Positions 3,001-58,965 of a DNA stretch of 64,000 nt are shown here, one piece after another. The translations under genes and the position numbers were made by a program. The stretch comes from a virus (taxonomy: Duplodnaviria; Caudoviricetes): IMG/VR virus record IMGVR_UViG_3300026549_000046, positions 68,048-132,047 of that record. One strand, 5' to 3'. The notes beneath the pieces were generated by a model that saw nothing but the letters and a program-made list of their open reading frames with translations, had not been told where the DNA came from and searched no databases. The first letter of the stretch is position 1. Each line of letters opens with the position of its first letter.

Positions 3001-4991
3001 TTAAAAATTCCATATAGTCTATTTATTACATGTAATGTTTCAATTAGTTCAATATTTCCAGCCGTAGATTCCATAGTTAGTGAATCCGATGAACTATGAG
3101 CTAAATCATCTTTCAAAAACTATCCTAGTAAATATTTACCTTTTCTTAATTTTACAGGTTGTGTTGGGTCATATAAGTTTGATATTCTTATTATATCTAT
3201 TAATCCAGAAGCTTTATTTCTAAATAATAAAATTCCATACTAATCTAATATAGGATCTATATTATCTTCACTTACTATTTCCCATATAGATGTGTCAGAA
3301 TATTTTTTCATTTTAGTGATAAGATAAGTAGCATTAGTCTTTTTATTAGAAGATTTTGCAGCTAATGATTGAATAGTATTTAAAGGATTATCTCCATCTT
3401 TATGATAATAATTTATATATGCTTCTCTTAAAGATTTTGAAGTATTTATTCCATAATTTTTATTATATTCTGCATTTTTCTATAAATCTTCTTTTAATTT
3501 TACTAGTGCTTCTTGTTCAGACAAATTTCCATCGTAATGTCTGAATCCTACATCAGAATTTTTTCTTGGACGATATTCCCATTCTCCTGTTGCAGAACTT
3601 TTTCTAATACCTCCATTATTTTTAATTAAATCTAAAATACCTTTTTCAGTAGTATCTTTTTCTGGAGTAGGAAGTTCTCTATTCATTGTTTCTTGAACAT
3701 CTTCAAAAATATTTTCTATATCATCTATAGCAGGAATATACAAATTCTTAGGAAACATTCTATCTAAGTTTGATTCAATATTGGTTCTTTCATCACTAAA
3801 ATCAGAATTAGATAATTTCTAAAGTATTGTATTTCCAACTTTATCTCCAAGACTTGAAATACTATCAAAAGAAACTTTTCCGTTTTCCATTTTAAATCCT
3901 TCAAATTTTAGTGGAGCTACATATAATTCCATTTTTTGAGGATTTATATTCATTGATTGTAATATTCTTCTATATGTTGCTAACTAATATTTAAAAGTTA
4001 ATATTTTTGCAGAATTATACTCAAATGGATTATTATCAACATTTAATTCAGTATAGTCTTTTGGAGAACATTTATAGTCTATAATTCCTATTCCAGGATG
4101 TTTTTCATCACCAATTACCAATAAGTCAATTTTACCTATTACTTTTGTTACTTGACCTCCATCTAAAGTTAAATCAAGATCTCCTACAATAGGTTGTTCA
4201 GTTCTTACATAAGCATTTTTCCCCCATTTATTTCTAATTTCTTTATCAAGCTAAATGAATCTATCTACAGAACTTTCTATAATATTATCGGAAATATAGT
4301 CTTTGTACTAAGGATCTATATTATTTTTAAACCAATTAATTATTTCAGGTCTAGTAGTCTAGTATAAGAATGGCCCATTTTCTCTTATTCTCTATCTATA
4401 GAAAAGTGCAGCCATAGCATGAATCATATTACCGCATATAGCTTGTTGTTGCCATAATCCTCCTTTTCTTACTCCATTCTAAATTACTCCTTCCATTCTT
4501 TCTCTAATTTTATTTAGAGTTTCTTGATTGGATATGGGTTTTATATTTCCAGAAGAATCCTATTCTACTAAATCTGATATAAACTATAATTCATAAGCAT
4601 TAAATTTTCCCTATTTATAATCACTAAATTTATGATTCCAATAATTATCAGAATCAAATATAGGAAATACCTAATCTGTATATCTACTAGGCATTGTATG
4701 AATTAAATCAGTAACAGATATATATGGATATTTTAAACTTCCAACATCATCGAGTTCATCAGGCTCTAATTCTTCTTTTTTAACAGTATCTATCTGAAAT
4801 CCTCTATCTTTTAAGTCTTTATATGTTTTTTCTGCTTCTTTTAAATTTTTAGCATATCTTCCTTGAATTTCAGTTAATTGAAAAACTAAATCTCCTAAAA
4901 TTGGCTTTAAAGTTTCTGTAGCTAATAAATAATCATTTAAAGCCATTTCGGAATCAAAAGTTTTATTTTTATATTTATAAACACAATTCAT
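15..4991 (-). CDS. Large putative virion cargo protein (~1658 aa, code 15) with N-terminal RecB-type PD-(D/E)xK nuclease domain
   Basis: ATG at 4989-4991, TAA at 15-17. Track ORFs 4671..4991, 3480..3758 and 1095..1283 share one frame and are separated by TAG. Motifs YISVT, GNMIH, TEQPI, GKIDLLV, IIDYK and YQLATY (Q = TAG at 3984-3986). Confidence 0.8.
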
Positions 4992-6055
4992 TAGTTACAT
5001 TCTTCTCTAAGTTCTCCAGATTTTAATAAATCCGATTTAGTATTAGCTAAAATTCTATGAGTCATTGCATTATTTAATCCTGATGCAACACTTATATTAA
5101 ATACTGAAGATTCTAATTCCTCCGCCAAATTTCTAATAGATTTATTAAATATTTCATTATCTTCTAAAGATTTAATACTATAGTTTCCATCAATTATAGT
5201 ATCTATATCTCTTTTAATATTATATAATACTTGACTTATTATATCCTTCTATAAATTGTCAAACAAACTACTCTATCCAGTTACGAATTTTGATAATTCT
5301 TCAACAAAAATTTCTTCTAATATATCATTCATTGTTCGACTTCCTTCAAACTCGGAAATTCTATCTTCTATATTTGGGATATTCTGAACAACAGACATAA
5401 GTTGCTAAAAAAGTGAAGGATTTGAAAAACTAATAGACCCTATAAATAAATGTAGCATTTCATGAATTGGACTATCGATTGTAGCATTATCAATATTTAT
5501 ATAAATAGTCCCATTTTTTATAAATGCCTTTGCAGAATTAACATCAACATTATTTACTAATTCGTCATTATCTATATATTTAATATTAATTCCATAACAT
5601 TCTATCATTTTATTTAAAGCATTAGATAATCCGACTTTCTACTAATCTATATCTTCAGGAATATTTGTTTCTATAGTATTATCTAATATATTATATTCAC
5701 TAGGTCTTTGTTTAACTTTAACAATAGTAGTATTACCAATCTCCTGCAGTTTTATATCTAAATCTCTATGTATATCATTAAGGGCTGCATTTGCTTCTTG
5801 AATAGAATTAGTGCCTGTAGCAGCTAAAACTTTATTTGTACTTGTATAATTAGTTCCTTTATTTGAACTTTTCATAGAGATTTCTTCTTTTAAGCTAGGT
5901 AAAGAATTAGCTCCTGGAAGTTCATCTAATTCTGGAAGTCTTCCGTACTACTCTTTAAACTAACTCATTCTGTCTAAAATGATAGAATCAGAAAGTCCAG
6001 ACTTTTTTAAAGTCTGAAACTTTCCATGATTCCTTAACGAGCAATAATCAGCCAT
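4991..6055 (-). CDS. Zincin-like metallopeptidase domain protein (~354 aa, code 15)
   Basis: ATG 6053-6055, TAA 4991-4993 overlapping the next ATG. Joins track ORFs 5642..5875 and 5405..5608. HEMLH motif at ~5450-5464, preceded by KAFIKNGTIYIN, with LEEIFVEE downstream. Confidence 0.8.
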
Positions 6056-6056
6056 T

Positions 6057-9000
6057 TTAACACTCTTGTTTTTGATTATTTCTGGATTTTAATCCATGTC
6101 TCAAAATATCTAAATCTAATTGGTAATATTTAGTTCCATCTGAACGTTTTTTATGTTTAAACTAAAATATATCTAAACATTCCTCTTTAGTCCATCCTAA
6201 TTCCTAAGAATTTTCAATAAACTAATTTAAAGTCTATTGTTTTCCATTTATTGTTAAAACAATACTATTAGAATTATTTATTATTATTTCTTTAGGATTT
6301 TCAGAATTTTCTATTAATTGGTATATGTCAGAATTAATTTCATATCCTCTGAAAATAATAGAACCATTAGAAGCAATATTAGGATTCATACTTACGTCTG
6401 AAACTTTTAATTCTTTAGTTAAATCATTCCAAGTTATATTTCTTCTTGAAGGTCCTTCGCTAAATTCACTATCATCATATCCTATTTCATTAGCTAATTG
6501 TTCATTAATAATATCCTATTGAATATCTTCAGGAATATTTTCATCCTCTGAAGAAGATCTTTCTTCTTGAATTGGTCTTACTAACTAGTATTTATTAGTT
6601 TCTGGATTTAACAAATAGGAATAAGGATATTGTGAAACATTTTCAAATCCAGTTACAACTGGGGCTAAAAATCTCATTAACATATCTTCATCCTATTCAC
6701 TAAAAATAGGTTTATCTGATTTATCACGTTCTCTAAGGAAATTAGTATAATCAGAAATATGAGTATTCTAATTATTTACTACTAAATCTTCAAATAAATC
6801 CGTTAAAGCCTATACTCCAGGCTGCCCATTATATGCTATTAAATTATAATAAAATAGTGCAGTTACTATTCCAGCATTACTTCCATCTTTTAACTTAACA
6901 GAATTTAATTCCTATAATCCCTATTTAATTTCATTAAACGTAACATTCTCCTAAGGATTCTTCATATTATAAGACTAAGATTTTGCTATATTTACTGAAA
7001 GATTATGGTCTGGATTAAATTTATAAGTTCTTAAAGTAATAGCTTTAACAAATGCATTTTCTGGGTAATTACGTTTTAAATAAGGATATAAATAATTTAC
7101 AACCCATTCAGCAAATATTTTATTACTTTTATCATCTCCTAATTTTATATTTATATATTTAGGATTACCTTCTTCATCAAACTCTTCTTTTAATTCTCCA
7201 TTTACTATTGAGAATATGGGAAGTTTAAATATTTCTTGTTGACTTCTTAAGAATTCGTTGTTTATTTTTCTAAATATTACTGAATTAGCTGTTTTCTAGA
7301 ACTAATCTAATTTAGAAGATTCTATAATATTAAGTTTTGGAAGTATCCATTCTGATAATTTGGTTTGTTCTTTATAAACTATTGATGCTACTTTTGATCC
7401 TTCATAAAGAAGATTCATAGCTTTTAAGTATCCTCTATAATGTGGAACATTTAACATTACATCCATAATATTTACAAACTATTTTGCAGCACCATAAGCA
7501 TTTATAACTGCTTTCTAATATTCAGGATTAATTAAGAATTGATTTAAATCTATGAATAAATCATCTTCAAAGAAAATTTTACCTTCTTTTTTAAATTGTT
7601 GATTTAATGTTTTTAATGGAAGTAAAGATTCATCATCTTCTTCTAATCCTTTTCTTTTTACAGCATTTCTTAATATACTTCTAAACCCATTTATCCAATT
7701 TAACTAATCCTACACAAGATTTGGAAGTCCTTGATTTAAAGATAAAACTTTTCTAAGTTCTCCCATTTCTTCATTTACAAGATTTAGTTTTTTAATTTCA
7801 TATAGTCTTGTATGTTTTTCTCCATCTCGACTATATTTATCATTAACTATATCATTTTCTATGATTTTTCTATAATCTGTCCAATCAAAAATATTCTATA
7901 ACCAAGTTTTTAGATTAGAGCCTTTTTTATCCCAAATAATATTTTTTAGGGATTTTATAGAATCATCTTTTGATATTTCTTCTTGTAGTTTTTTCTATGT
8001 ATTTAAATCTTCTTGTGCAGTAGCATTTTGTTTTCCATTAACTAAATCTTTATATCCTTCTAATAATGTTTTTAATTGGTTATAACTAGATTTTTCTTCT
8101 TTTAATTTTTCTAGTCTTTTTTGTTTTGTTTTAGATAAACTTTCTAAATTTGATAATTCATCAAGTTCTAAATTCTTTTTACTTCCTTCTTTCCATGACC
8201 AATAAGCTGGATCAGATTCAATATCTTTTATTGACTATTTAATTAATTGTTCATCAGTTTTAGATATTCTATTACTATCGGGATGTAATAAAAATCCAGC
8301 TAATTGTCTCATTCTTCTTCTTAATCTCTTACTCATTAAAGCTCTATTAAGATCTTCTTGAGTTATTCTCTTGTTATCAGAATGAGGAATTTTATATAAG
8401 TCAAAGATTTTAAGTAATATATTCTGAACTTCTTCTGGCTATCTTCCTAAGTTCGGAGGAAGAAGTAAGAAATTTATTGCTTGAGAAAGTCTATTAAATT
8501 TTTTAGAATCTTTATCAAAAACATTTCCTTTTTGTAAATTATTTAATAATATTCCAGTGTCAGAAATCATTAGATCTCTAAGAGAGTTCATATCAACTCC
8601 CATTATTATTCCAGCAATATAAGTACCAATCATTCCTGGATCAGCATTATATTTAGATAGTGTAGGATCTTTAGCATTATCAGTACTTAAACTTAATAAA
8701 GCAGACATTAATATGAAAGCATCTTCAAGATTATCTACACTCTATAAAGCCTATTTGACTTCTTCATTTTTAATACTATCTTCATTTTTAACATAAGAAT
8801 TGGCTAAAAGCTAAAAAGATTTTCCGTTTATTCTAACATTTGCTAATAAACTTCTTTGCTATTCTTCAGAACCAAGAGCAAGTATATTATAATAATACTA
8901 ACTCATTGCTTCAAAAGTTTTCATAGCAGAAGCTACAATACCTGTATTCTATTTTCCTGACAATGTAAGAATTAAACTTCTTATTCTTGCCATAATACTA

Positions 9001-12000
9001 TTAGCATCTGATGTTACTGGCAATGCTGATAGTCTATCAAATTCCGAGCCTGGTGCTACAGCATCTTTAAAATCATCTGTTGCTTCATCAATTCCTGACT
9101 ATCCTTGAATTAAATTTATTGGATTTTTAGAGATATTTTTAGTTTTTATAGAAATAAAATTATAAAGAGCGTATTTACGTTTAAAGGCTTTATTCTTTCC
9201 ATTTAAGAAAGTGTTATGTCTATCAATTAAATCTATTTCTTCCTAAAATCTAGGAGATATATATTTTAATTTATTTGCAGTTCTTATAAGTTCAACTAAG
9301 CCCGATAAAGAGTATTTACCATCTTCTGTGAATTCTAAACTATTAATATATTCATCAAAATCCTCTTCAAAATTATATTCTTTAGTATTAATACTATTTT
9401 TTATTCCCCAAGCTTCATTACTTATATCCTTAACTCCCTCTAAAGAGTCTTGATAATAAACATAGTCTCCTTGTGGAATTTTATGTAAAATAGCTCTGAT
9501 AGTAGTGTAGCTTATATCTCCAGATATAGCCCAATAATCTTGAGTTTCAGTCTAATACTTTATTGCAGATAATACATTTCCATTACTATCCCTTACTATA
9601 ATTTGATTGTTATTTTGAATTAAGGTATCATAATTTTTTTCATTGACATCAAATGCTCTTGCTGTCATAGAATCAACTTGTACTTTTCTTCCAGTAGGGA
9701 ATGGAAATTTTTCAGATATATCTGCATTTTCTTTAGAAGATAAATCATAAAAACAGCTCCATGTAATTAATTCTCCATTATGAAATTTAAGTCCTAATAC
9801 ATTTGCTTTATCTATGTCCAGTTTATCTTATATTTTTCAATATAAGCTCGACTATATCATCATTTCAAAATATATATTCTGAAATGTCTCGCGCTTCGGA
9901 ATCTTACGAATCCTACTCCATTTCTGGATAGTCTGTGAACCTTCATCTTAAATTGAAGATGCTTGGCTGCGGATATTCCAATTCATTTCCTTTTTTACTA
10001 TATCGATAATAATTAATTATCGCCCTCAGATATATTTCTATTCTAAGTTAGTAGGAAAGACTCTAAGGAAGTCCCCGTCAATTCACGAGATTTAACGACT
10101 ACAACATTATTTAAGTGCATAGTCACTACCTTGAAGGAATAACTACATTCTACTAACATATATAGAATTAGCTTTTCCTTGGTCAAACCCAACTATTCTC
10201 ATAGCCATGAAGGACTAATGAGATTGAGCTGGAGTTCTTGATACAATACATTCAAGAGAATCTAAGAAAGAAGTATGTTTATTGAATCCTTTCTAAATAA
10301 TAGTTTTTAAGAATGGATATTTTATCTAAAGATTTTCAATTAGTTCTTGTTTATTAGATAATCTATTATTAGTTATAACTTCTAATAATTTGTTTATTCC
10401 TTCTTGATAATCTTCTTGACCTTTACTTATTAAATCAGAATATCTAATTTCATTAATTAATACATCATTATTAATAATATCATTAATTGTAAGGTCTTCT
10501 ACATTCTATATTTGTAATAGTTTCTAGTCTAATCCTTTATCAACTAATATTTTTAAAGAATTATCTCCATTTCCAGATTTAAGTCCTTCTTGATGATTTT
10601 TAGTTCTTACTCTTGCTATATTTACAATTCTTTCAATTAAGTTCTAAGAAACTTCATTAGTTGAATTATTTATTTGTGATAATATCTATCCAAGATCTTC
10701 TTCTCTTACATTTCCAAATTGTACATTATTATAGTTAAAATAATCTAAAAACTGTGTCAAATTATCAGTACTTATAATCTCAGTTCCATTTTTACTTCTA
10801 AATATTTTTGTATTTTCAGTAATTGGATATAATTTCTTTCCATTTTCTGAACGATAAAGTACTCCGTTTTCAGTAATAGTTTCTATATCAATTTGAGTAA
10901 GACCTCTAGGTAATTCCCTACCATCAGCATAATGCAAATAAATATGATTACCACTTCCAACTTTTAATTCTAAATCAAATTGATGTGGAAGTAATTTAGA
11001 AGATATTTTTTGAGCATCTCTTTTAATAAAGAAAAATTTATCTTCCACTATTTCATCAACCTAATCCCCTTCTTGTAATCCAAATTCAGTTCTATACATC
11101 ATTGGAAGTACTGCTTCGTATGGAGTTACTTTAGTTTTTGTTTTATCGACAACAATGGTCTATCCATCTATTTGAACAGTACTAGCTGTTCCATTTCCTA
11201 AGGCATCTAAAGTTTTTTGTAAATTATGTCTTAAATATTTTTCAAGCTTAATATTTCTATTAGGAATTAGATTGCCATTATTATCAGTAGTATAAGGAAC
11301 TTTTAAAGAAATTAACCAATCATCAAGAAGTTCATTTTCAAGTTGACTTAATATTTCATTAGATTTCCATTTATTCCATATTTCTTCCTAAATAGTTTCA
11401 GGTTCATCAAAAGTTCCGTCTTTCCTAATATACTATAGCTGTCTTACAACGTCAACCTACCATAATGAATATTCAATTCCGTCTTTAGAAGTTAAAGTAC
11501 AATCATATGTTCCTAAGTCACGTCCTATAGCTTTTTGAGTAGAATTATCAATAAAAGCTTCTGTAATACGTTGTCCTTTTTTGTAAGCTTCTCTTAATAA
11601 TTTAAAGTCAGGATAACTATCAACTTTAACTAATTGTAATTTATTTCCTAGTGCATCTGAAATATAATAATTTCTTCCAAATTTTATCTAAGAAATAGAT
11701 AAAGGTGTAGCATCAGATTTTTTCTACATCTCAATAAGTTCTTTAGGACTTACTTTTCCACTTAAACGATTTCCAATAAGTTCTTTTCTTCTATTAGATG
11801 GATTTAATACCATTTGACCCCCGTCCATTTTGAGACGTACAGCCTTTTCAATACTTGAAGCAATTTTAGATTGAATAATATTGAATATACGTGGATCACT
11901 TATTGCAAAATTTCCTTCAAAATCTTCTAAGCTATTTAAATTTAATTCTTTTAATCCCTAAGCTAATACTGACATAATGTTTCCATCTTCTATAGAAACA

Positions 12001-15000
12001 TTATTTAAAACTTTCTTTAATAAATTATATATAAATATTTTTAAAGGTTCTGAATTTCCATCTTGTAAATGTAATAATCCATCAAATCCTTCTTCAAAAC
12101 TCTATAATACAACAGCTTCAAGAGCTTCATAACATTCTTGGGCAGCCTCACGACTATAACCCCTTGCTCCTAACGCATTAACAACCTAAGTCATTAGTGA
12201 TACATGTCCTCCTTCGGAATCATGTTCAGCATCAAGCTGCTCTCCAAAATCAGAAGAATTACATTCCATCCAGGTAGCCTAATAATCTTCATTATAGAAG
12301 TCTATAGAATTTATATTTGTTGCTCCGAATTTAGAAGCACCCATAGTTACAACAAAATTAACCATAGATTGTTTAAGAACCTGAATTACATTTTCCTAAG
12401 TTTTAATTTTAGAGTTTTTGAAAGCACTTTTATTATTTGTAATTCCAGCATTATTCATTATTTGAAGAACATTTAATGTAGAGGAATCATCATTTTCATA
12501 AGATAATCTACCATTCTATAAATGTCCAGACCATTCTCCTCCAAAAACTTCTTTCCATAACTAATAATTAGAATCTATAATTTTGTCTCCAACTCCTTCA
12601 TTTCTTGAGTTATTTAATTCTTCTCCGTTACTAGCAACAGTAACTTCATCCCAATGAGTTATTCCATTTTCATCAATTCTAAGATTACTACGTTTTGTCC
12701 ATAACTATTTTTCTGGATTATAAACATACCAAGGGTCTACTTGAATTGCAGTTTCGTCATATTTTTGAAGATAATTAAAATATGGATTTTGTATTCCATT
12801 CTATTTTAGAATTTGTGTCCATTTAATAGTATCATTCATTTTACGATTCATTATGGCATCTCTTCCATTGGCTCCAGGTAATTGACTTTCTCTAATAGAT
12901 TGGTTATTAATTAAAAATCCAGCAGTTTTAATAATTAATCCAATACCCGTCTATGAATCAAGAGCATGAGTAAAAGGTTTCATAGTAGTTCCCATTGCAT
13001 CTGCTCCAAGAGAATTATTATCAAGAACATTCATAAACATATTATAGAATGTTGCACCATCATAAGGTTTAGTTCCACCTTTCTTATATAATCCTCCATA
13101 AGTAATAACAGAATCTCTTTCATCTTCAACAATAAAGAATCTTAATTTTTCTCCAATACCATATAAAGAATTTTGCATTTCTCTATGTTTAGAAGCGGTC
13201 TAAGATACTTGACGTTTTACTTGCTATCCGTATTGAGACTCTTCGTAATTAAAGATTGAAGAAGAATTTGAGTTTCCAGGATGTGCTATAAATGATCCAA
13301 CAGATGTTAGATTATAAGATTCTCCTATCCACTGATTTAAAGCATTGTGTTTTTCAATTTCAGGATTTAATTCAATAGAATATTGTGAAGATAATCTGTC
13401 TTTAACAATATCTAAATCTTCAACTAATTTAAACATTTCAGAAATTAAAACATCATCCTTAGAATTAATAATACTCTGTTCTACAATATCATTTATTGCT
13501 AACTTTGCAATATAATCAGATAGTTCTTCTTTTGATTTAGAATCAATAAATTCTTGAGCCTTTCTTACAATAGTATCATCATGCCAAGTAGGATTTTTCT
13601 TTCTTAAATTTGATTCTATTGCAATTTGAATATTTGGAGTTAATTTAAGAAGTTTATTTTTTAATCTTTTATTATTTAATAATATTTCAATAGCTTCTTT
13701 AGTAGTTAAACTTCTAAGTCTTCTTGTATTATTAATTATTTCTAAAACTTTATCAAGTCTAAATGTAGGACTTGAAATTTTTAAGTCTGCTGGAAGACTT
13801 TCTCCAAATAATTCTACTAGTTTCTAGTATTGATTCCAATTTTCAAAATCTTTTCTTGAAATAATAGATTGTTTATTTTCTTCTCCTAACATTACTTTTC
13901 CAAGAACAACCATTGAACCTTGCATATAATTAATATCATTATTTCTTTTATATGCAATAGCATTAGCTTTATCAGCAGCTTTATCAAGTTTTATTGTAAT
14001 ATTATTTCCAAAAAATTCTTGTAATAATTGATATTTGTGCCTAATTTTTTCTTGTTCTGGAGTTTCTAATAACTAAGATTTGTCAAATTTTAAATTAGAA
14101 TCAATTTCAAAATTTTTAACAGGTCTTCCATATATAGATAGTTGATGGAATAATGATGGATTGTTATGTAAAAATCCTTCTTTGTCTTTAATATAAGATA
14201 CACCATCAATCATTTTTACAGAATAATCTGGCTGTCCTTTTTCAAGTACCTATCTCTGTAAAGTAGCCACTGCATTATGTAATACACTAAAAGCTGTTAC
14301 TTTAGTTAATCCTTTTTGTTCTCTAATAGTATTTAACTAGCGTATATAGTTATTAAATTCCTAAAAATCCGAATTATAATCTAAAGTAGGAATCTACTAT
14401 AACAAAGCTTTTTCTTCTTCTGAAGCAACAATTGGAATTAAAGGAGTTACTATTTCTAGTATTACATTGTTAATTTTATTATATTCCTAAATAATATTAT
14501 TATGTAATTTAGCGTAGTAATTTCCAAATTCTAACTGTTGTACTTTTCTTATTTCATCAGCAGTTAAATCTTTAATATATTTTAAGCCTACTCCTGGAAT
14601 ATTTACAGTATCTAAAGGTCTAACTAATATTTTAGGTAATTTAGATTTATCAGAAATTGTTGGACCAAATATTCTTATAAACGTTTCATTAATTTTTTTA
14701 TGTTCTGGAGTAATTTCTCCAAATTTTCCATCGTCTGTTTCCTAAGATATTCCATCATATAAATCATAAATAAAAGAACCTGAGAAAAATTCATTAGATG
14801 AAAATTTAATAGCCTACTAGTTACTACCTAATCCATTATAATCTCTTACAAATTCAATTCCATTAAATAACTGATAAATTGAAAAATCATTATATTTCAT
14901 AATAGAATTTGGATTGAAATTATGATTATATGATAATTCCATATATTTACTCATAAGCTAAGATAGTCCTCTAATAGCTAACTACTTATTTTCTCCATCT

Positions 15001-17141
15001 TTAGCGGTATTTTCACTAGTATATCCTAACTAAATATCTCTTGTCTAACTAAGAGCTAATACTTTAGGATATTCAGAATTAGGAATTAATTCAGGCTATA
15101 AAGAACCTCTTGACATTCTTATTTCTGTCCCATTATAAAAATCTCCTATATGAGATTGATAATCATTATAAGTTTTTGCATTAAGAGTTTTTCCTACTTT
15201 ATAATTATAAAGAATAGAACCAGCAATGTCAAATAATTCTTTAAGTGATTGTTCGCCTCTAATAGATTTGTATATACTTATAAAATTATCATCAACTCTA
15301 AATCCAAATATTTCTGATAAGAAATCATATAGTTCTGGAGTTAAATTTTGTAAATCTACATTTTCATATGCAGTATACTATGCCCCATTTCTGTATTCTG
15401 TTTTTCCTATAGATTTTAGATTTGTAGTAACTCCATTAGAATTTCCTTCTAAAGTTAAAAGAAAATTAGTACCCTTTATATTTACAGTTAAGAAAGGAAC
15501 ATATTTGTTTTCATTATTTTTTTCAAATTCTCCAAACTCAACAGTTCTAAAGTTCTAAGGAACAGTAATATTATATACTCCTTCCCAAGAAAATACTTGA
15601 TTATTTAATCTTTTATTAGAAGTGTTTTGAGTTATATTTATTACTTCTCTTCCTCCATTTACATTTTCTTTGTATTCACTAAATGGAGTATTTTCTATAT
15701 TAACAAATAATGTACTAAAAAATCCGAATAAGTCTGAAGTCATATTATTTGAATTAGATCTTAGTACAATAGATAATAATGAATTATTATTAGAATAGTC
15801 ATAAATATTTTTATAGATAGAATGAATAATGTCCTATACTTGTGGTTTTCCTGTAAAATATGTTTTTAAATTTTTATCTAATACAGAAAAAAGAATTGGA
15901 GCAAACATTATAGGATTTGTTTTAGCTTTTGCTAATAACTTTCCTACTGTATCATAAGTACGTTTTATATTATTAAATCCACTATCTCCATAAATCTATT
16001 TTAAATCAGATATTTTTTGTTCATCTAATGAATCATAATCTATTGAACGAAGAGTTAATTTTGGATTACTTAATAAATTCATTATTTCTCCAAAACTAGT
16101 TTTTATATCTCCAAAAGTTATTTTCTATGGAGTTATATTGTCTCCTTTCCAAACATTAAGACTTTCTACATATAACTAAATTATACTTCCTATTTCTCCA
16201 GTCTCATCAATATCTTTTTTATCATCTTTCCATGTTCTTGCAGCTTTATTTCCAAGATTTAAAGTATATTTTTGTTTATTTCTTAATACATCAGCACTAT
16301 AATCTTTGTTATAACCTATAGATACTGCATCTCCAAATGCGCTAGAAATAAGTTCATCAAAATTAATTAAAGCTACTAAAGATATATATCCTTGAAGTTT
16401 ATTTCTTTGAATAGAATTCTCTAAATTAGGTATTTTAATTAAATCTATTCTAGATAATGGAGATAATATTTTTTGTTCAAATAGTTTCTTTAAAAACTCT
16501 ATTTTAGTTCCAAGAGTTCTATTTGAATTATAAGCATTTAATAATTCTGGATAAAATTCTTTTAAATAATTTTCGACATCATTTAATAAATCTTCCTAAT
16601 AGCATTTAATGGATTTATCCATATCTGAACTAGAAACATTTAGTGTCCAAATTTCCCCTGTTTTATTTATAAATAAATTCTGAATTACATTATTTTTAAA
16701 TCTCTATTCAAAAGATAATCTAGCATCACTAGATAAAGGAAAATATTTACTTAAAAAAGAGTTTTTCTAACTTTCTCTTTCTAGTTTTTCTTCTAATGTC
16801 TCGTCTAATATATTTTGTTTAGAATCATTTTCACTAATACTATTAAATACATTAGAATCTTCTCTCTATGATTCTATCATAGAAGGGTTAAAAGAAGATA
16901 GAACCCTATCTAAAATAGGGTTCTCTTTTCTTCTTTTTCTATTTGTAATATTATTTAATATTTTATCTACTGCTTCAAAAAAATCCTCATCCTAATATTC
17001 AGTTCTTAAAATTTTTAGTGAATCTAAAAACTAATCAGATAATTCATTTTCATCATTTATCTTCTATATATTAGAAAGTATATCTGATAAAGACTTACTA
17101 AATCTTTTACTACTTAATTTCCCATTACATAATAAACTCAT
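6057..17141 (-). CDS. Virion-associated DNA-dependent RNA polymerase, crAss-type, join(6057..9818,10119..17141), ~3594 aa
   Basis: ATG 17139-17141, TAA 6057-6059. Track ORFs at 15555, 13224, 12951, 10686 and 8439 are all in this frame. Motifs DGATF, MKPF, QLDAEH and RTPAQSHQSFMAM, plus catalytic QGSDY|DIDKA restored by removing intron 9819..10118. Confidence 0.85.
9819..10118 (-). ncRNA. Group I self-splicing intron (300 nt, no ORF) in the RNA polymerase DxDxD motif
   Basis: 5' exon GACUAU pairs with internal guide GUAGUC (U.G at the splice site). Core elements AAUUGACGGGGA (P), AUCCGCAGC (Q), UUCACAGACUA (R), AUGAUAUAGUC (S). Terminal G at 9819. In-frame TAA at the 4th intron codon makes splicing obligatory. 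Confidence 0.92.
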
Positions 17142-17154
17142 AAAATCTTAATTT

Positions 17155-51014: not shown

Positions 51015-54000
51015 TTAAATTTCTCTCGCAATATACGACCTGTCAATTTGTTACCATTAGGCTCTTTATCCTAATTTCAATATGTTACCATATTGTTCAG
51101 ACTATATCATCACTTTATAAAGTGTCGGGCACTCGTGTCAGGATTATTGTTTGTGATACTCACCTGTTAGTCGTTAGCGGTTTAATGTACTTTTATTCAC
51201 TTCCATTACTTCCGACGGGATTGTCCTTTTCAGGAGATTCCCCGTTTTCACCCGATTTTTCACTAGATTCTACTAGTGCCACACAATCAGTAATTTTATA
51301 AGTTTTCTTATACAAACTTCCAATATTAGCTGCTTTTTTCATAGCATCATATTTACATTCTTTTTCTGGAAATTTTTCTAAAAAATCTTGAATACTCATT
51401 ATCCAAACTTCTCCAGTTTTGATGTTTTCTATTCTTCTTATTTTTTGTTTAACTTTAGATAATTTTTTTCTAGTTTCTTCAGAAACAATTTTTCCTTTAT
51501 GAGCTTGTCCAATTTTTTTCTTATGTTCTTCAGTAAGTTTTCTATTGTGCATTGCTTCAGAAATTTTTTTCTTTGCTTCTTCTGTATGATGTTTACCATA
51601 CATTCCATTACGTTCTCCAAACATTTTACGTTTTTCTATCCATTCTGGGGTTTGTTTTATACCAGTCATGTCTGGAGTATAATCAAAATAACAATTAATA
51701 CATAAAGGATCTTTTTCTACAGATTTAAGAAGAGTTACTTCTCCAATATTTGCTAATTTACGAGTTTCAAATACTTCTAATATTTCTTTTTGTAAATCAG
51801 AGTAATGTTCTTTTATATAAAGTTTAGTCCATATAGAACTAGATCCCATATATTTATCATCTTCTATTTCACAATCACAACTTCGAACTCCAATATAAAA
51901 TTCTTTTGTTTTAACATTGGTTATTTTATAAGTATAATTATATTTATGCATAATTTTTTAATTTTAAGTTTATATTTAATTTTATCTCTTAAAATATAAA
52001 ATTCAAATTAAAAAATCTCATAACATAAATTACTGTGTGTATATTGTCAAATTTGTCTTGCAATATACGACTTGTATGGATTAAATACTGCAATGCCAGA
52101 ATATCCCCACATAATTAACTTAGAACCGGCTACTGGACTAGCTACTTCTCCAGAGCTTAATCCATTTTCTCTACCAACACCTAAATATTTGTTGGAAATC
52201 ATATCTCCGCCTCTAAGAGTAAACATTGCCGATTATTTCGGCTCTATAATATTTCTATTATAGTCAGACTATATCTTTAATTTAATCTTCTAGATATTTC
52301 CATACAAACCCTCCTGCTGTTTTTCTTTTTCCAGTCAAAACATTCGGAGCACCACAAGTATCAGCTTTAGCTTCTCTTACGGTATTAAAAATTTGTATTA
52401 ATTTACCTTCTAATGTATATTTTCCAACTTTTCTAGCTTTTGTTTTGGGTTTCAATTCTTTCATATTAGGAAGTTTCTCCCAACTCCACTGAAATCCCAT
52501 ACAACTATTATTCAATCTTATTGCTGCGTGTATTCCAATATCTTTTCCAAAATATTTTTTTATTTCCGAATAGTTATTCCACTCTTTAATAAAATTACCT
52601 TGCAAATCATATTGATATAGTTTATCATTTTTATGATTTATAAAATTTTGTATTGGAAATTTATCATATTTTATATCACTGCAATAATATTTATTTGCTA
52701 TACAAAATTTTCCACGGATTGCTTTAGATACTTTTTGTAAATCCTCTTTTATATATTTAGAACATTCTGATATAGAATTAAATTCATTTATAAAATTTCC
52801 ATTAATATCATATAAATATGTTTTTGTTTTATTTTCATTTAATTTAAATTCATCTAAATTTAATTTATCATATTTATATTCAGTCCAAAAATATTTAATA
52901 CTAGGCGTTCTTTCAAAAATAGCTCTTCCAATACTACTTGGAGAACATTTATAATATATAGAAGCATTAGTTATCGAATCCCATTCCTTTATAAAATTAC
53001 CTTCTAAATCATATTGATATATAATTTTGGTTATAGCTGGAGGTATTCCTCCTCCGAGAGTAATATTGTAAGTATCATTTCTTTTTATAAAGTCAGAATC
53101 AACTAACCATCTTTCTAAATCTAAAGCATCTTCTAATTTATCAAATACTTTTAATGTTATTCTTTTAAAATTATCTACCCCATATTTATTTACAGCTGCT
53201 TCGAATGGAGTTTTACTGTATTTATAAGTGTACTTATCATTAATTTTTACTCCACATCCTAAATAACCATCAAAATGATTAGGATTTGTTGTTTTATGTA
53301 CCCCTATATAAATTTTTTTATTTACTAAATTAGTTGTTAAATATACAATATATTTTAAATTATTTTCCATTTCCATAATATTTTATTATGTACGCCTCGC
53401 GGCTAGTCGTTGAACGTCTATTAGAACTACTCTAAACAGAGCCTGTATAATCTAATATTTCGCTGCTGATTGTCCAATCTTCAAGATTTTTACACTTTGG
53501 TACTTGAAGCTCTAAGGAGTTTCCAGCAATTAGAAAAATATTTGTTTTTGCTTTATTAAGCAGCCCTCCTACCACAATGTTTAATAGGAGGTTGTGCAGA
53601 AGTCTTATCTGCGGTTAAATCCAATGCAAGCATGTAACCTTTTTCATCATTAATGTTAGCTTTATGTTTCCATAAAAGATCAGACTATATCTTAATCTTC
53701 TTCTATATATTTGAAAATAAATCCTTTACAATGTGTTCTTCTTCCTTCTATAACACCTTGAGCATTAGTAAATCCTGCTCTTTTACATTCTCCTAAAGAT
53801 TTATAAATAGTAATTAAATTTCCATCTTTATCATATTGTGCAACTTTTTTTGGATTTCCAAATCTACTTTCTAATCCCTTTTTATCAGAAAATTTATTTA
53901 CCATTTTTTCCCAAATAGTATCTTTATAAGTATTGTAATCTTTCATAAAATCCACTTTAATTTTAGATACTTGATAATCTCCACAGAATCCATAACCTTG

Positions 54001-57000
54001 TTTTAAAGCTCTAGAAATACTAGATCCTCCAGATTCTCTTCCATAAATAAATAAAGCTGCTTTCTGTTGAGAAGGAAATTCCTTAACAAAATTTCCGTTT
54101 TTATCATAAAGAAATACTCCTTTAGAATTGGTCGGAACAACATCTTTACCTCCACCTAAAATCATATTATATGTATCAGGTCTTTTGATAAATTGTTCAT
54201 CTACTAACCATCTTTCTAAATCTAGAGCATCTTGTCTATTATCAAACACTCTTAAAGTTGATCTTATAAAAGCAGATGTTCCATATTTTTTCACTGCTTT
54301 TTGAAGAAGTGTTTTAGGATTCATATAAGTACTTGGTTGATTAATCCAAATACCATTTCCAATATATCCATCAAATTCTAAACTAGCGGTTTGATGTATT
54401 CCAATGTATATTTTTTTATTAACAGTATTTACTGTTTGATATACTATATTAAAGATTTTCTCCATTTCAATTAATTTTAAATTAATTTACGTCCATTCGG
54501 ACTAGTCGTTGAACTTATCTTATTTCGTCGCATTGCGATACACAACTAAGATTTAGCTGCTGATTCCCATGTTATAAAAATAATTTAGGGTTCCAGCAAT
54601 TAGAAGAATTTAATCGAATAGTATTACTACTATAAGTGGGCTAGAAAAAGTTAACCCAAATTCACGAGAGAAAGTTCTATCAACCTTAAAACTAATAGTA
54701 TTACCCTACCAATTATAAGAATCAAAGCCCTTCGCTCCAACTGAAACATAATCATTAGCTTTCATAGACCAAAGATATGTTCCATCAGTATGATACTGTG
54801 CTAAATACTAATCAAGTATATCTCCAAGATCATACCAAGCCTTTTCGTTACAAATAAACATGTAGTGGTTACCAGTAGGCTTTTCAGCCTTTTCATTAAG
54901 AGCCATCATCATTGTTTTAAGTACTCCGATAGTCAATTTATTATAAGCATATTTACTAGCAAAAGCTTCTACCTATGGAATTATGCCATCAGAGATATAA
55001 ATGGGACGATTAGTATCTGGATCCACAATGGTTGGTTTTCCTGTTTCAGGATTTACATTTCCTTTAGAAAATAATAATCCTTGGTTTCTTGCAGTAAGGA
55101 AATTATCAAGTAAAGTTTTTTGAGTTTTATCCATTCTATAAATAGTTTCACTCAAATTACCCTAATCTTTACCTTCAGCAATTTTAACAAAAACATCTTC
55201 CTAAGCAGCATATAAAGCTGAATAAGAAATATCATTTCTGTGAGTAGAAATATAACCACGATGTTTTTCTACATTAGATTGCCATTTTACGTATCCTTCT
55301 TCCGTTTAACCTTTTATGTTACCATAAAAGACTGACTATATTATTAATTACGTTAAATATTTATAAATATGTTGTTTATGAGTTTTATTTGTACCAGCTA
55401 AAACCTTCCATACTGAGGTTCCGTTTTCCTTTTCAGCAGCAGTAGCAGATTCATATACTTTTACTAAAACTCCATCTAAGGAATACTTTCCAACTTTACG
55501 TTTTTGGATTTTCTTTTTTGGAACATTATAATTATCTAATTTTTCTAATCCCCATAAATATCCATTTTTATCGGGAATTTTTAGTTTAATGGATTTAGTT
55601 ATATTAGTTTTGTTTTCTAACTCAGCTTCTAATTGTGTTTCATATGATTTACAGAAACTTCCATCAGGATTATATCTATAAACAGATCTTGTTTTTAAAT
55701 ATTCTGTTCTTGCTTTATCATAAGATTCTGCTTTAATATAAGATATGTAATATTTATTTTTTACAAGAACACCTAATATGCAAGCATTTCTAATACTAGA
55801 TGAACTAATTCCAGTTTTTCTTTCACAAGAAGCTTGAGTTTTAAATCCTCCTAAATATTTTCCATCTTTAGAATAAAAAAATACTTTTATAGCATGATTT
55901 AATCCTAAATTATAATTAGTTAAATCTAATTTTTCTACTTTGTCTGTATTCCAAAAATATCCTTTTGCTTTAGCTTTTTTTCTTACAGCATAAGAAATTA
56001 AAGTATAATCACAATTTAATTGTAATGCTGCATCAGCAAAACTTTCATATTCATTTATATAATTTCCATTTTCATCATATTGATATACTTTAACTCTATT
56101 GCTTATAAAATATCCACCTAGTCCCCCAAGAACCATATTGTAAACATCTTCTCTTTCTAAGAATTTTTCGTTTACAATTTGTTCTTCTAAATCAGAAGCT
56201 TCCTCTACGGTATCAAATACTGCTAATGTTTTCCTTCTGAAATTTTCAGGACCATACTTTTTTACTGCATACTGAAATGCGGTTTTAGCATACATATAAG
56301 TATAAGGTTGTGTAGAAATTACTCCGTTTCCAAGATATTTATCAAATATATCTGGATTTTCGGTTTTATGTAGTCCAACATAAATTTTTCCATTGACTAA
56401 ATTTGTTGTCTCATAGACAATATATTTCCATTGTTTTTCCATATAAATATTTATTATAATTATTTACTCTTTCGATATTAAATATCTACGCCTTGCGGCT
56501 AGTCGATGAACCTTATTAATTATCCTCTGCTCTATTAGAGTGAAAATTAATCTTGGCTTCTGATTATCCTATAATATATAGGATGTCCCAGAAATTAAGT
56601 AAATTTTCTTAATTAAATAATTAAAAAATTATTCCAATTAAGGCACAAATTAGTTTATGCAATTCAGGCATATAGTTACTAATCCAACGCGTTTTGTCTC
56701 CAGGTTGACAAGCACTTAAATCCAGAACAGTATCATAATTATTGTCAACAAGTCTTACAACACATTCCCAATAATTCAAATTTTGACTATATCATTTACT
56801 TACTATATTTAAATATGTAATCTCCATAATATTTATCCCCCAATTGAATATTTTTAATTTTAGAAGCTGGAATGTTATATTTTTCTTTTACTTCCTTTAT
56901 AGATTTCATTTGTTCTATAAAATTACCATATTTATCATATACATCTACACATATTCCATTTCCTATTCTTTTGGCAGGAACTTTATCAATTTCTTCTAAT

Positions 57001-58965
57001 GAAATATAAAAATCTTTGTACCAGTTTTTATATTTATTAAAAATATGATGTATGTGTTCCCATGAATGGAGATTTATTGCTTTCATTAATTCTTTTCCAA
57101 CAAATTTTCCGATAAAATTATTGTTTACATCATATACATAAAAAGTCATATTTGTATACAATTTTCTTGGTTGAATTATAAATTCGTCCATTAAAGAAGT
57201 TGAAACATAATATTGTTTTTTTATTAAAGTTTGATTTCTAATAGCTCTAGAAAGTTCTCCATTATCATACCCTATATCTTTTGAACATTCTGTTTGAGAA
57301 GAGTATTCTCTTAATAATTTTCCATCTTTAGAATATAAATATGTAGGATTATTTAATGTTTTTCTAGAATATTCATCAATATCTATTGTTGGGGAAGTGG
57401 ACCAGTATGAATTTAAAAATATACACTTATTTCTTTTAGGACTTTGAAATCTATCTTGATCATATCCATAAAATTCATAAGCATCTTTAGATTTTTCCCA
57501 TTTCTTAATAAGATTTCCATTTAAATCAAATTGATATAATGGCAACCATCTATCTTTAGTTTTTCCTCCAACTACCATGTTGTACACATGATCTTGTTTT
57601 ATAAAATCTACATTAACTATTTCTTCTTCTTTTTTATATGCATCATCTTCATTATCATAAATAAATAAAATTTCTCTTTTAAAAGCTTTTATACCATATT
57701 TTTTTACAGCATACTGAAATGCTGATTTTGGATATTTATATGTACTTGGTTGTTGAACATATACTCCACAACCTATGTAGCCATCGAATATTTCAGGATC
57801 CTCTGTTTCATGGACTCCAATGTAAATTCTATTTATTCCATTAATTTTTGATTTTAAATTTGTTGTTAAATATATAATATATTTCATAAGTAATTCAGTT
57901 TTTCGATTATTTTATCACAAAATTATCTACGGATTTCTCCTAGTCGATGAACGCTACTGTCATCACAGTCACGCTGCTGATTGTTACTATTGTACTTTCC
58001 AGCAATTTAAAGAATTTTAAATTCAATATTTTTTCAAATATAGGGTGACAATTTGGGAAGTTTATCACCTTTGCGGACAGGACGTCCAACTACCTAACAC
58101 TACTGTCCTGAGTTTTCAATCTTAAAGGTATCATATTTTTCATAGTATCTTTCTCTAAAGGCCATTATAATTTCAGTACCTCCAGCACCATCACCTTCTG
58201 GTACAGCTGCAAATTCAATACGTTTAATGTAATTAGTTTCCGAGCAGACTATATCATTTATTACTTCTTGTTGTTAAATATACAATATAATTCATAATAA
58301 TTCAGTTTTTCAATTAAATAAAATTTAATTTACGCTTTTCAGCTAGTCGTTGAACGCTGTTGTCATCACAACCACGCTGCTGATTGTTACATTTTGTAAG
58401 TTCCCAGCAATTTAAAGAATTTATTTAAGGGAGATCAAAACTAATTAAAACTCTAAAAAGAGTCTAATCTCCCAGTCGAATTGTAAAGCATTTACAGATT
58501 GATACTTATTACCACTACCTTTAGCATCTTGATAAAATATGTTCTTAAGAGATTCGGTAAGGAAAGATGCAGTTAAGTCGTCGTACATTCTTGATACAAC
58601 ACCAAGACGTGTAGGCTTAACTCCGAGGTACTTATAAAAGTCCTCATAAGTTCTAGTATCCAATTTCTTACTTTGTAGTTCTTTATCTACAAACTAATAT
58701 TTTATCATTATATTAGTTGAGACTATATCTTCATTGAATAGCCAATGTTCGGTGTTCGTGGAATCTTTTATTAAGTCTATTTATAGATTCTAGTCGTTGA
58801 ACCTTCTTACTAAGATTTCCGACTTCTTAATAAGCTTGGCTGCTGATTGTCCAAATTATCTACTATGAAGGATTCCCAGCAATTTACCGAATTTTAAATG
58901 GGCAATAACTAGAATTATTCTTTACCCATTGTGGGGATATTAGAAGTAAAAGAAGCTATTTTCAT
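51015..58965 (-). CDS. Major capsid protein (crAss-like, HK97 fold), 8 exons, 476 aa after splicing
   Basis: Exons: 58924..58965, 58466..58660, 58064..58240, 56657..56776, 54654..55302, 53583..53647, 52076..52229, 51015..51043 (sum 1431 nt). They join in frame: MKIASFTSNIPTMG|DTRTYEDF..FDWEI|ETNYIKRIEF..RKGD|NYWEC..PELH|EEGYVKWQSN..FSREFG|YEKGY..AQPPI|AMFTL..VFNP|YRSYIAREI*. Seven TAG codons by my count. Confidence 0.88.
51044..52075 (-). mobile_element. Group I intron 7 of the capsid gene (1032 nt), HEG in the P1 loop
   Basis: Exon/intron CCAU|ACAA pairs with UUGUGUGG (~51279-51286). Core AAAACGGGGAA, AAUCCCGUC, CUAACGACUA and AUGAUAUAGUC. Terminal G at 51044. Confidence 0.88.
51193..51951 (-). 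CDS. GIY-YIG homing endonuclease with NUMOD3 motifs (I-TevI-like architecture)
   Basis: YTYKITN..FYIGVR and YMGSS. NUMOD3-like MYGKHHTEEAKKKIS and HKGKIVSEETRKKLS. Inside intron 7. Confidence 0.88.
   Translation of the reverse strand: MHKYNYTYKITNVKTKEFYIGVRSCDCEIEDDKYMGSSSIWTKLYIKEHYSDLQKEILEVFETRKLANIGEVTLLKSVEKDPLCINCYFDYTPDMTGIKQTPEWIEKRKMFGERNGMYGKHHTEEAKKKISEAMHNRKLTEEHKKKIGQAHKGKIVSEETRKKLSKVKQKIRRIENIKTGEVWIMSIQDFLEKFPEKECKYDAMKKAANIGSLYKKTYKITDCVALVESSEKSGENGESPEKDNPVGSNGSE
52230..53582 (-). mobile_element. Group I intron 6 of the capsid gene (1353 nt) with HEG
   Basis: P AAUUGCUGGAAA, Q AAUCAGCAGC, R UUCAACGACUAG, S AAGAUAUAGUC. P10 AAACAUUG pairs with 3' exon CAAUGUUU. Terminal G at 52230. 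Confidence 0.9.
52282..53376 (-). CDS. GIY-YIG homing endonuclease with NUMOD1-type repeats
   Basis: YIVYLTTNLVNKKIYIGVH..YLGCG, with repeated YQYDLxGNFIKEW units. The stop overlaps the intron S element. Confidence 0.88.
   Translation of the reverse strand: MEMENNLKYIVYLTTNLVNKKIYIGVHKTTNPNHFDGYLGCGVKINDKYTYKYSKTPFEAAVNKYGVDNFKRITLKVFDKLEDALDLERWLVDSDFIKRNDTYNITLGGGIPPAITKIIYQYDLEGNFIKEWDSITNASIYYKCSPSSIGRAIFERTPSIKYFWTEYKYDKLNLDEFKLNENKTKTYLYDINGNFINEFNSISECSKYIKEDLQKVSKAIRGKFCIANKYYCSDIKYDKFPIQNFINHKNDKLYQYDLQGNFIKEWNNYSEIKKYFGKDIGIHAAIRLNNSCMGFQWSWEKLPNMKELKPKTKARKVGKYTLEGKLIQIFNTVREAKADTCGAPNVLTGKRKTAGGFVWKYLED
53648..54653 (-). mobile_element. Group I intron 5 of the capsid gene (1006 nt) with HEG
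   Basis: P1 UGGGU/GCCCA. P, Q, R and S elements present. Terminal G at 53648. Phase-1 insertion. Confidence 0.9.
53692..54465 (-). CDS. GIY-YIG homing endonuclease with NUMOD1-type repeats
   Basis: IVYQTVNTVNKKIYIGIH..YIGNG, with VFLYDKNGNFVKEF and VAQYDKDGNLI repeats. Confidence 0.88.
   Translation of the reverse strand: MEKIFNIVYQTVNTVNKKIYIGIHQTASLEFDGYIGNGIWINQPSTYMNPKTLLQKAVKKYGTSAFIRSTLRVFDNRQDALDLERWLVDEQFIKRPDTYNMILGGGKDVVPTNSKGVFLYDKNGNFVKEFPSQQKAALFIYGRESGGSSISRALKQGYGFCGDYQVSKIKVDFMKDYNTYKDTIWEKMVNKFSDKKGLESRFGNPKKVAQYDKDGNLITIYKSLGECKRAGFTNAQGVIEGRRTHCKGFIFKYIEED
55303..56656 (-). mobile_element. Group I intron 4 of the capsid gene (1354 nt) with HEG
   Basis: P1 GCAU/GUGC. P AAUUUCUGGGA, Q AAUCAGAAGC, R UUCAUCGACUAG, S AAUAUAGUC. 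Terminal G at 55303. Confidence 0.88.
55348..56442 (-). CDS. GIY-YIG homing endonuclease with NUMOD1-type repeats
   Basis: YIVYETTNLVNGKIYVGLH..YLGNG, with four VYQYDxNG-like repeats. Confidence 0.88.
   Translation of the reverse strand: MEKQWKYIVYETTNLVNGKIYVGLHKTENPDIFDKYLGNGVISTQPYTYMYAKTAFQYAVKKYGPENFRRKTLAVFDTVEEASDLEEQIVNEKFLEREDVYNMVLGGLGGYFISNRVKVYQYDENGNYINEYESFADAALQLNCDYTLISYAVRKKAKAKGYFWNTDKVEKLDLTNYNLGLNHAIKVFFYSKDGKYLGGFKTQASCERKTGISSSSIRNACILGVLVKNKYYISYIKAESYDKARTEYLKTRSVYRYNPDGSFCKSYETQLEAELENKTNITKSIKLKIPDKNGYLWGLEKLDNYNVPKKKIQKRKVGKYSLDGVLVKVYESATAAEKENGTSVWKVLAGTNKTHKQHIYKYLT
56777..58063 (-). mobile_element. Group I intron 3 of the capsid gene (1287 nt) with HEG
   Basis: P1 GGUGAU/GUCACC. 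P10 UUCCCA pairs with exon UGGGAA. P, Q, R and S present. Terminal G at 56777. Confidence 0.88.
56796..57887 (-). CDS. GIY-YIG homing endonuclease with NUMOD1-type repeats
   Basis: YIIYLTTN..RIYIGVH..YIGCG, with LYQFDLNGNLIKKW-type repeats. Confidence 0.88.
   Translation of the reverse strand: MKYIIYLTTNLKSKINGINRIYIGVHETEDPEIFDGYIGCGVYVQQPSTYKYPKSAFQYAVKKYGIKAFKREILFIYDNEDDAYKKEEEIVNVDFIKQDHVYNMVVGGKTKDRWLPLYQFDLNGNLIKKWEKSKDAYEFYGYDQDRFQSPKRNKCIFLNSYWSTSPTIDIDEYSRKTLNNPTYLYSKDGKLLREYSSQTECSKDIGYDNGELSRAIRNQTLIKKQYYVSTSLMDEFIIQPRKLYTNMTFYVYDVNNNFIGKFVGKELMKAINLHSWEHIHHIFNKYKNWYKDFYISLEEIDKVPAKRIGNGICVDVYDKYGNFIEQMKSIKEVKEKYNIPASKIKNIQLGDKYYGDYIFKYSK
58241..58465 (-). ncRNA. Group I intron 2 of the capsid gene (225 nt) with HEG remnant
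   Basis: P1 GGGAGAUU/GAUCUCCC. P10 AAUUAGUUU pairs with exon AAACUAAUU. P, Q, R and S present. Terminal G at 58241. Confidence 0.88.
58254..58295 (-). pseudogene. 13-codon remnant of a GIY-YIG homing endonuclease (MNYIVYLTTRSNK*)
   Basis: Same position, same leader (AAAAACTGAATTA) and same N-terminus (cf. MKYIIYLTT) as the intron 3 HEG. Confidence 0.75.
58661..58923 (-). ncRNA. Group I intron 1 of the capsid gene (263 nt, no ORF)
   Basis: P1 AAUGGGU/GCCCAUU. P10 UUCUAGU pairs with exon ACUAGAA. P AAUUGCUGGGAA, Q AAUCAGCAGC, R UUCAACGACUAG, S AAGAUAUAGUC. Terminal G at 58661. Confidence 0.92.

Follow-up and report, generated by a model that had tools for sequence, protein, structure and literature searches.

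A probable crAss-like phage major capsid gene interrupted by seven group I introns, one of which begins with a copy of the last exon

Group I introns are known from the capsid genes of crAss-like phages of the Delta and Zeta groups, where one such gene lies in five fragments and a genome can hold up to 14 introns (Yutin et al. 2021, PMC7886860). Gut jumbo phages with ~18 introns per genome have also been published, and their splicing was confirmed by metatranscriptome. Here we describe a capsid gene of this kind on a viral contig of 132,047 nt (IMG/VR record IMGVR_UViG_3300026549_000046; completeness estimate 73%). The stretch that we analysed, referred to as the window, is the right-hand 64 kb of the contig (64,000 nt, positions 68,048 to 132,047), and the gene occupies positions 51015..58965 of the window on the minus strand. 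Comparison with related sequences indicates, with high probability, a crAss-like phage in which TAG stands for Gln and whose major capsid gene has been colonised by seven mobile group I introns of an IA-like type. It shares with the Delta and Zeta phages a capsid gene with several group I introns and endonuclease open reading frames (ORFs), recoding of late-gene stops and a large genome (132 kb at 73% completeness here; up to 194 kb in the contigs of relatives), although the resemblance to the Zeta group is confined to genome size and intron density. The gene differs from the published example in lying in eight fragments rather than five, and its intron ORFs avoid TAG, whereas a case of intron ORFs sharing the recoding is shown in PMC7886860.

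Using the intronless capsid proteins of MT835470 and MT835492 as tblastn queries, we resolved the gene into eight colinear pieces on the minus strand and fixed the exon borders by junction reading. The exons measure 42, 195, 177, 120, 649, 65, 154 and 29 nt and join in frame, giving 1431 coding nt and a 476-aa product from a locus of 7951 nt. This reproduces exactly the exon map, with seven group I introns, of a prediction made earlier from the letters alone (the original prediction). Exon 1 (58965-58924) encodes residues 1-14; a matching 14-aa first exon, followed by the same intron as in the window, is found in two related loci, L016 and L018. Exon 2 (58660-58466), exon 3 (58240-58064, with two TAG codons), exon 4 (56776-56657), exon 5 (55302-54654, with five TAG codons), exon 6 (53647-53583) and exon 7 (52229-52076) follow, and exon 8 (51043-51015), which we call tail B, ends the frame with TAA. 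Introns 1-4 and 6 are in phase 0, introns 5 and 7 in phase 1. The phase of introns 1-4 had been predicted correctly, and exons 2-4 have lengths that are multiples of three; the skipping of these exons envisaged in the original prediction would be in frame in the arithmetical sense only.

The spliced product aligns end to end with its homologues in MT835470 (L001:8470-9888) and MT835492 (L002:6440-7861), with indels of single residues only, and, as the original prediction required, is colinear with the L001 protein, to which it is 67% identical. Both homologues come from GenBank phage contigs from human faeces and are uninterrupted genes of ~473-474 codons. Three of the seven in-frame TAG codons in the exons stand opposite a conserved Gln. 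The L001 protein matches the Pfam family Crass_capsid (PF23898) at 52.2 bits against a cut-off of 27, and also PHROG 11589, 'major head protein'; the translation of exon 5 alone gives no match to the PF23898 profile, and the family match is that of the intronless homologue. The window, L001 and L002 have a common gene order, in which an acidic scaffold-like protein is followed by the capsid gene and two conserved downstream genes. The genes of this region lie on the minus strand, and in-frame TAG occurs within the late genes.

All seven intervening sequences, each on the minus strand, match the group I intron family RF00028 far beyond chance, with E-values from 1e-15 to 8e-4, and three reach the gathering threshold of 50 bits in this covariance-model check, which the original prediction had proposed. 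Two introns hold no ORF: intron 1 (58661..58923, 263 nt, guide 58903-58898) scores 67 bits and has a P1 helix of 6/6 bp with U.G and a terminal G, and intron 2 (58241..58465, 225 nt, guide 58436-58429) scores 35.9 bits (E 2.7e-6) with a P1 of 8/8 bp. Intron 3 (56777..58063, 1287 nt, guide 58049-58044; 27.6 bits, P1 6/6 bp) contains an endonuclease ORF at 57887-56796 (363 aa). The same organisation is seen in intron 4 (55303..56656, 1354 nt, guide 56646-56643, ORF 56442-55348 of 364 aa), which scores 42.7 bits at 56611-56462 plus 18.5; in intron 5 (53648..54653, 1006 nt, guide 54641-54637, ORF 54465-53692 of 257 aa), with 56.8 bits plus 28.6 for its 3' part; and in intron 6 (52230..53582, 1353 nt, guide 53573-53565, ORF 53376-52282 of 364 aa), with 46.1 plus 22.9 bits and a P1 of 9/9 bp. 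Intron 7 (51044..52075, 1032 nt) carries its endonuclease ORF (51951-51193, 252 aa) in the P1 loop, with the ribozyme core at ~51286-51044 scoring 67 bits at 51302-51078.

The junctions have the expected anatomy. Every intron has a P1 helix of 4-9 bp, formed of standard pairs throughout with U.G at the 5' splice site, and every intron ends in G. The bases 5' of each guide are able to pair with 3-6 nt of the 3' exon as P10 (7/7, judged by eye). By motif scan and alignment, the P4, P6 and P7 core strands (the P, Q, R and S elements) stand in the correct order and are near-identical across introns 1-6; intron 4 has a compensatory change in P4, and the divergent core of intron 7 is backed by covariation. 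U.G pairing in P1, P/Q/R/S cores and a terminal G at each junction are thus present as originally predicted, with one shift of emphasis for intron 7, whose guide lies far inside the intron, after the ORF. The near-identical cores of introns 1-6 could in principle mispair between introns. Each intron, if unspliced, presents an in-frame stop 2-14 codons past the 5' splice site, a feature that has been interpreted as helping the ribozyme to fold (review PMC3984707).

We note that cmscan was inconsistent in these searches, dropping earlier matches when given a smaller region and missing the intron 7 core, its counterpart in the related locus L017 and a further intron of the window, all of which were recovered by a genome search with the same Rfam family. 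This further group I intron, at 9828-10150 on the minus strand, has no ORF and scores 75.9 bits against RF00028 in the genome search. It separates two giant ORFs (10107-17147 and 6057-9827) that jointly resemble one protein of ~3600 aa, probably a virion RNA polymerase.

To place the introns among related phages we mapped 84 related capsid loci; a one-protein search gave 4 loci and an alignment-based search 80 of 290. Intron counts taken from tblastn chains are lower bounds. About 60 of the 84 loci are intronless and ~17 have one intron, while L004 has at least three, L016 at least four and L005 (capsid gene 3835-11875) six. A scan for the intron-core motif also found L125 (IMGVR_UViG_3300045988_138716; capsid gene 2812-8823), with seven introns, and L140, with four. 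L125 and L005 are more distant relatives whose sites are mostly unlike those of the window, and at least 16 insertion sites are in use over the capsid gene family. Since most related capsid genes have none, the introns are dispensable. Their content varies over short distances: L003, with 94% protein identity over residues 80-476, shares intron 4 and probably intron 2 but is without introns 3, 5, 6 and 7.

The closest homologue of each endonuclease occupies the same site in another phage, namely L016 for intron 3 (86% identity), L003 for intron 4 (83%), L004 for intron 5 (87%) and L051 for intron 6 (65%). At the intron 4 site, same-site introns are present in L003, L011, L078 and L079, with endonucleases 68-83% identical. 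P1 guide and exon co-vary between same-site introns at four sites (residues 138, 394, 416 and 467). In intron 3 there is a compensatory change in P1 relative to L016, the P1 of intron 5 co-varies with that of L004, and P1 and exon of intron 6 co-vary in L052, L049, L050 and L065. This co-variation implies that P1 pairing, and hence probably splicing, is under selection. By sequence, each intron carries, or derives from, a predicted homing-endonuclease cassette found again at that site in other phages. The pattern appears to be that of classical homing introns, which come and go over short times, and it argues against a conserved regulatory role. Two additional arrangements were seen in relatives. 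In L049, L050 and L065 (~10708-11643) a shorter intron lies at residue 416, 1 nt upstream of the intron 6 site of the window, with a different guide that fits its own exon; and L017 has two group I intron cores close together (430-852) near capsid residue 189.

Five of the seven introns (introns 3-7) hold endonuclease ORFs, of 252-364 codons. They match the homing endonucleases of PHROG 314 with E-values of 1e-26 to 1e-30, and four of the enzymes contain NUMOD1, and the intron 7 enzyme NUMOD3, above cut-off. Searches of the PDB by sequence, with single sequences and with profiles, gave no match for the endonucleases. A structural model of the intron 6 enzyme (pLDDT 85) had as its best PDB match 1mk0, the I-TevI catalytic domain, with a target TM of 0.69 and a probability of 1.00 (whole-model E 0.056); in this model the N-terminal domain has the GIY-YIG fold. 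The enzymes of introns 3-6 are paralogues with mutual identities of 32-50%, and their ORFs sit between the 5' and 3' strands of P7. The intron 7 enzyme is of a distinct type (GIY-YIG type with NUMOD3), and its ORF is placed upstream of the ribozyme core.

The endonuclease ORFs are set apart by their codon usage. TAG accounts for 0/47 of the Gln codons in the five ORFs, in contrast to 27/75 (36%) in four neighbouring late genes (P ~8e-10), and all five terminate in TAA. In the exons around them and in the late genes, TAG stands for roughly one Gln codon in three. An endonuclease of the same family at site 460 of L004 is likewise free of TAG. The ORFs can therefore be read under either genetic code, which hints that they are built for hosts or phages of either code. 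Read with the standard code, a homologue of the intron 3 enzyme in L016 (935-2023, 86% identity) is interrupted by an in-frame stop; it may be a decaying or a recoded copy. Despite the heavy use of TAG in late genes, aragorn found no suppressor tRNA on the 132,047-nt contig (73% complete by estimate), on which it identified three tRNAs only (Pro, Thr and Ser; genome 9169-11679); a suppressor gene may sit in the missing part of the contig.

Several of these results weigh against the assignment of the seven inserts as mobile group I introns with GIY-YIG enzymes. The scores of introns 2, 3, 4 and 6 given above all lie under 50 bits (E 8e-4 to 7.7e-11), partly because ORFs of ~1.1 kb divide the core in three of the four. 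P1 is merely 4 bp long in introns 4 and 7. Among the protein families, TIGR01453 'group I intron endonuclease' is matched at 28-45 bits against a cut-off of 56 (E 1e-6 to 1e-11) and the GIY-YIG family PF01541 at 17.4 bits against a cut-off of 22.6. The sample of relatives is biased to genes with an uninterrupted exon 5.

Intron 7 has an architecture of its own. Its first 29 nt (52047..52075, minus strand; 'tail A') match exon 8 at 25/29 positions by sequence comparison; the copy keeps the phase of the exon and closes with TGA. Because tail A repeats exon 8 in phase and with a stop, RNA retaining intron 7 still encodes a 476-aa protein, which differs at residues 468 and 475 (K468/Q475 in tail A, R468/E475 in tail B). 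Within the repeat, the splice junction is the sole position with U before the 5' copy and G before the 3' copy. The guide (51279..51286, minus strand) lies ~790 nt into the intron, past the endonuclease ORF; positions 51282-51279 pair with the last 4 nt of exon 7, including the U.G, and 51286-51283 with the opening 4 nt of either tail A or exon 8, as P1 extension or P10. A P2 hairpin read from the sequence (51278-51261, minus strand) directly follows the guide and precedes the core, and the last ~100 nt of the ORF overlap the core, running through P2-P6. An alternative P1 near the 5' end of the intron would place A-U, not U.G, at the junction and contain a bulge; the guide at 51286-51279, which co-varies in relatives, was preferred. 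We considered as a possible promoter a motif that the window and L017 have in common in their intron 7 spacers, but discarded it because it was not enriched in the window.

The same layout is present in L017 and in L150/L201, with guides altered to fit the altered exon end and tail, and the homologous core of L017 scores 50.3 bits against RF00028. When the intron 7 cores of the window, L017 and L150 were compared, 93.5% of cells were paired, with 11 compensatory pairs in P2, P5, P6, P6a, P7.1, P8 and P9.1, a result matched by 0/500 shuffles. In all three lineages with this layout a Gln of the 5' copy corresponds to a Glu of the 3' copy. In a fourth locus, L068 (6832-7640), the precise site of intron 7 is taken by tail A, a spacer, an endonuclease gene with 62% identity and tail B, and no ribozyme core was found there. 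The downstream of its two tail copies has exactly the wild-type sequence seen in 17 relatives that lack the endonuclease; the upstream one differs from it at eight synonymous positions, which leave the peptide unchanged. Since a six-base repeat lies at the deletion borders, the sequence suggests that L068 derived from an element like that of L017 which lost its core, a direction that we infer. The tail variants K/R at 468 and Q/E at 475 are both found in relatives, and a check for relaxed constraint was not decisive. Partly recoded tails are also seen without the cassette in L053, L071 and L049/L050, and may be footprints or resistant alleles.

These data allow us to propose how the locus could work. 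The ~8-kb transcript would fold into seven ribozymes, each of which would select its 5' splice site by pairing of the guide with the exon end (P1, U.G wobble) and, after its terminal G, join the flanking exons. Capsid protein would require the splicing of introns 1-6, because each of them, left unspliced, ends translation within a few codons, and splicing of intron 7 would be optional, because that intron starts with a copy of the last exon and a stop. The original prediction of at least six obligatory splicing events and about seven TAG codons agrees with this count of six introns with early stops and seven TAGs. The endonucleases would be translated from intron RNA under either code and, given the distribution of the introns, presumably cut intron-less capsid alleles of co-infecting relatives, into which the intron is then copied (homing). 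Homing would lead one conserved gene to gather introns and the intron sets of close relatives to differ. On present sequence evidence the introns are probably best viewed as selfish passengers made harmless by efficient splicing, and not as a regulatory device.

We find it scarcely credible that misassembly produced this locus or that the gene is dead. It lies on an uncultured viral contig with an incomplete genome, and conserved core strands common to the introns might confuse assemblers, but the exons form a full, colinear set that joins in frame, the seven introns have different sequences, their endonucleases are just 32-50% identical and the same sites are filled in independent contigs. 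The original prediction had gone further and suggested that introns and TAG codons form an adaptive double timing gate, delaying capsid production until both splicing and suppression are in place. The need for six splicing events and seven read-throughs would suit such a gate, and recoded stops as a gate on late genes are a published hypothesis for these phages. The relatives, however, leave the idea unsupported: ~60 of 84 encode the same protein uninterrupted, the 94%-identical L003 lacks four of the introns, all seven introns either are homing-endonuclease cassettes or go back to one, and intron 7 has a built-in bypass, which is the opposite of a gate. We therefore consider this proposal highly unlikely. 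A further suggestion, which is compatible with homing by selfish introns, is that the five endonucleases serve the phage as weapons that, in mixed infections, cut the capsid gene of competitors without the introns (interference competition, marker exclusion), so that the introns are partly kept by phage-level selection. An intron endonuclease has been shown to act in this way in phage PhiPA3 (PMC11620839); intron-less and presumably sensitive alleles are common in the same habitats; and the L068 cassette carries a synonymously recoded target, the displaced copy being the wild type of 17 relatives. As selfish elements would account for the same distribution without benefit to the phage, and the role of the enzymes is a predicted one, we think such a contribution possible but rather improbable.

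For intron 7, the alternative to optional splicing is that splicing has ceased, the capsid protein being made with tail A while ribozyme and exon 8 decay as a relic. Tail A does complete the reading frame, the 4-bp P1 must form across ~790 nt, and L068 has lost the ribozyme wholly while keeping tail A, spacer, endonuclease gene and tail B. We nevertheless find a relic doubtful, given that the core scores 67 bits and that helices, guide and P10 co-vary over the window, L017 and L150, which argues for ongoing selection on splicing. Our own interpretation, tentative and held with a little less than even confidence, is that intron 7 is a splicing-optional composite in which an endonuclease cassette, bringing its own altered last 29 nt of the gene, lies inside a ribozyme that is still selected. 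The altered copy may be immune to the enzyme, and the four loci would be stages of inter-conversion between intron-borne and free-standing forms. If this is true, the duplicated exon allows a ribozyme to be gained or lost without killing the capsid gene.

The exact splice sites and the guide covariation show to what extent a single essential gene of a phage can fill up with group I introns, and intron-split capsid genes of this sort will be missed by automatic annotation. Should the endonucleases be active against competitors without introns, five of them in one capsid gene would matter for competition between gut phages. Intron 7 and its relatives provide a natural series for the long-standing question of how endonuclease genes and ribozymes join and separate. 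Endonuclease genes that invade introns, or home in collaboration with them, have been described for the cyanophage psbA intron with F-CphI and for T4 mobE with I-TevIII (PMC3984707, PMC2790892). As in those systems, cassette and ribozyme share an insertion site here, the cassette standing alone in L068 and being fused to the ribozyme in the window, L017 and L150. The cassette differs in adding a second, altered 3' end of the target gene, and splicing thereby becomes dispensable; we found no description of such a cassette for a phage intron, and the duplicated-exon architecture may be the part of this locus that is new.

The introns of the window resemble the T4 td intron with I-TevI and the Twort and SPO1 introns (review PMC3984707) in an IA-like core in which P7 and P3' are separated by an additional hairpin, in a GIY-YIG endonuclease with modular DNA-binding repeats, in the early in-frame stop and in their patchy distribution. 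Those genes have one to three introns, whereas here there are seven, and intron 7 departs from them in placing its ORF within the P1 loop and in bringing a duplicate of the terminal exon. The original prediction had called the number extreme, and it does exceed that of the published five-fragment capsid gene, but it is not singular, as L125 also has seven introns and L005 six. In fungal mitochondria, the conserved gene cox1 holds many group I introns with endonuclease ORFs, at an occupancy that varies between strains, and the splicing of such multi-intron organelle genes is assisted by proteins. An example of an intron-rich mitogenome is that of PMC6279837. The capsid gene is similar to cox1 in that introns with endonuclease ORFs pile up in one conserved gene and vary in occupancy; it differs in being a late gene of a virulent-type phage, in which translation is coupled to transcription. 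Set beside these systems, the locus is an extreme, not a unique, case of a capsid-intron phenomenon that has already been described.

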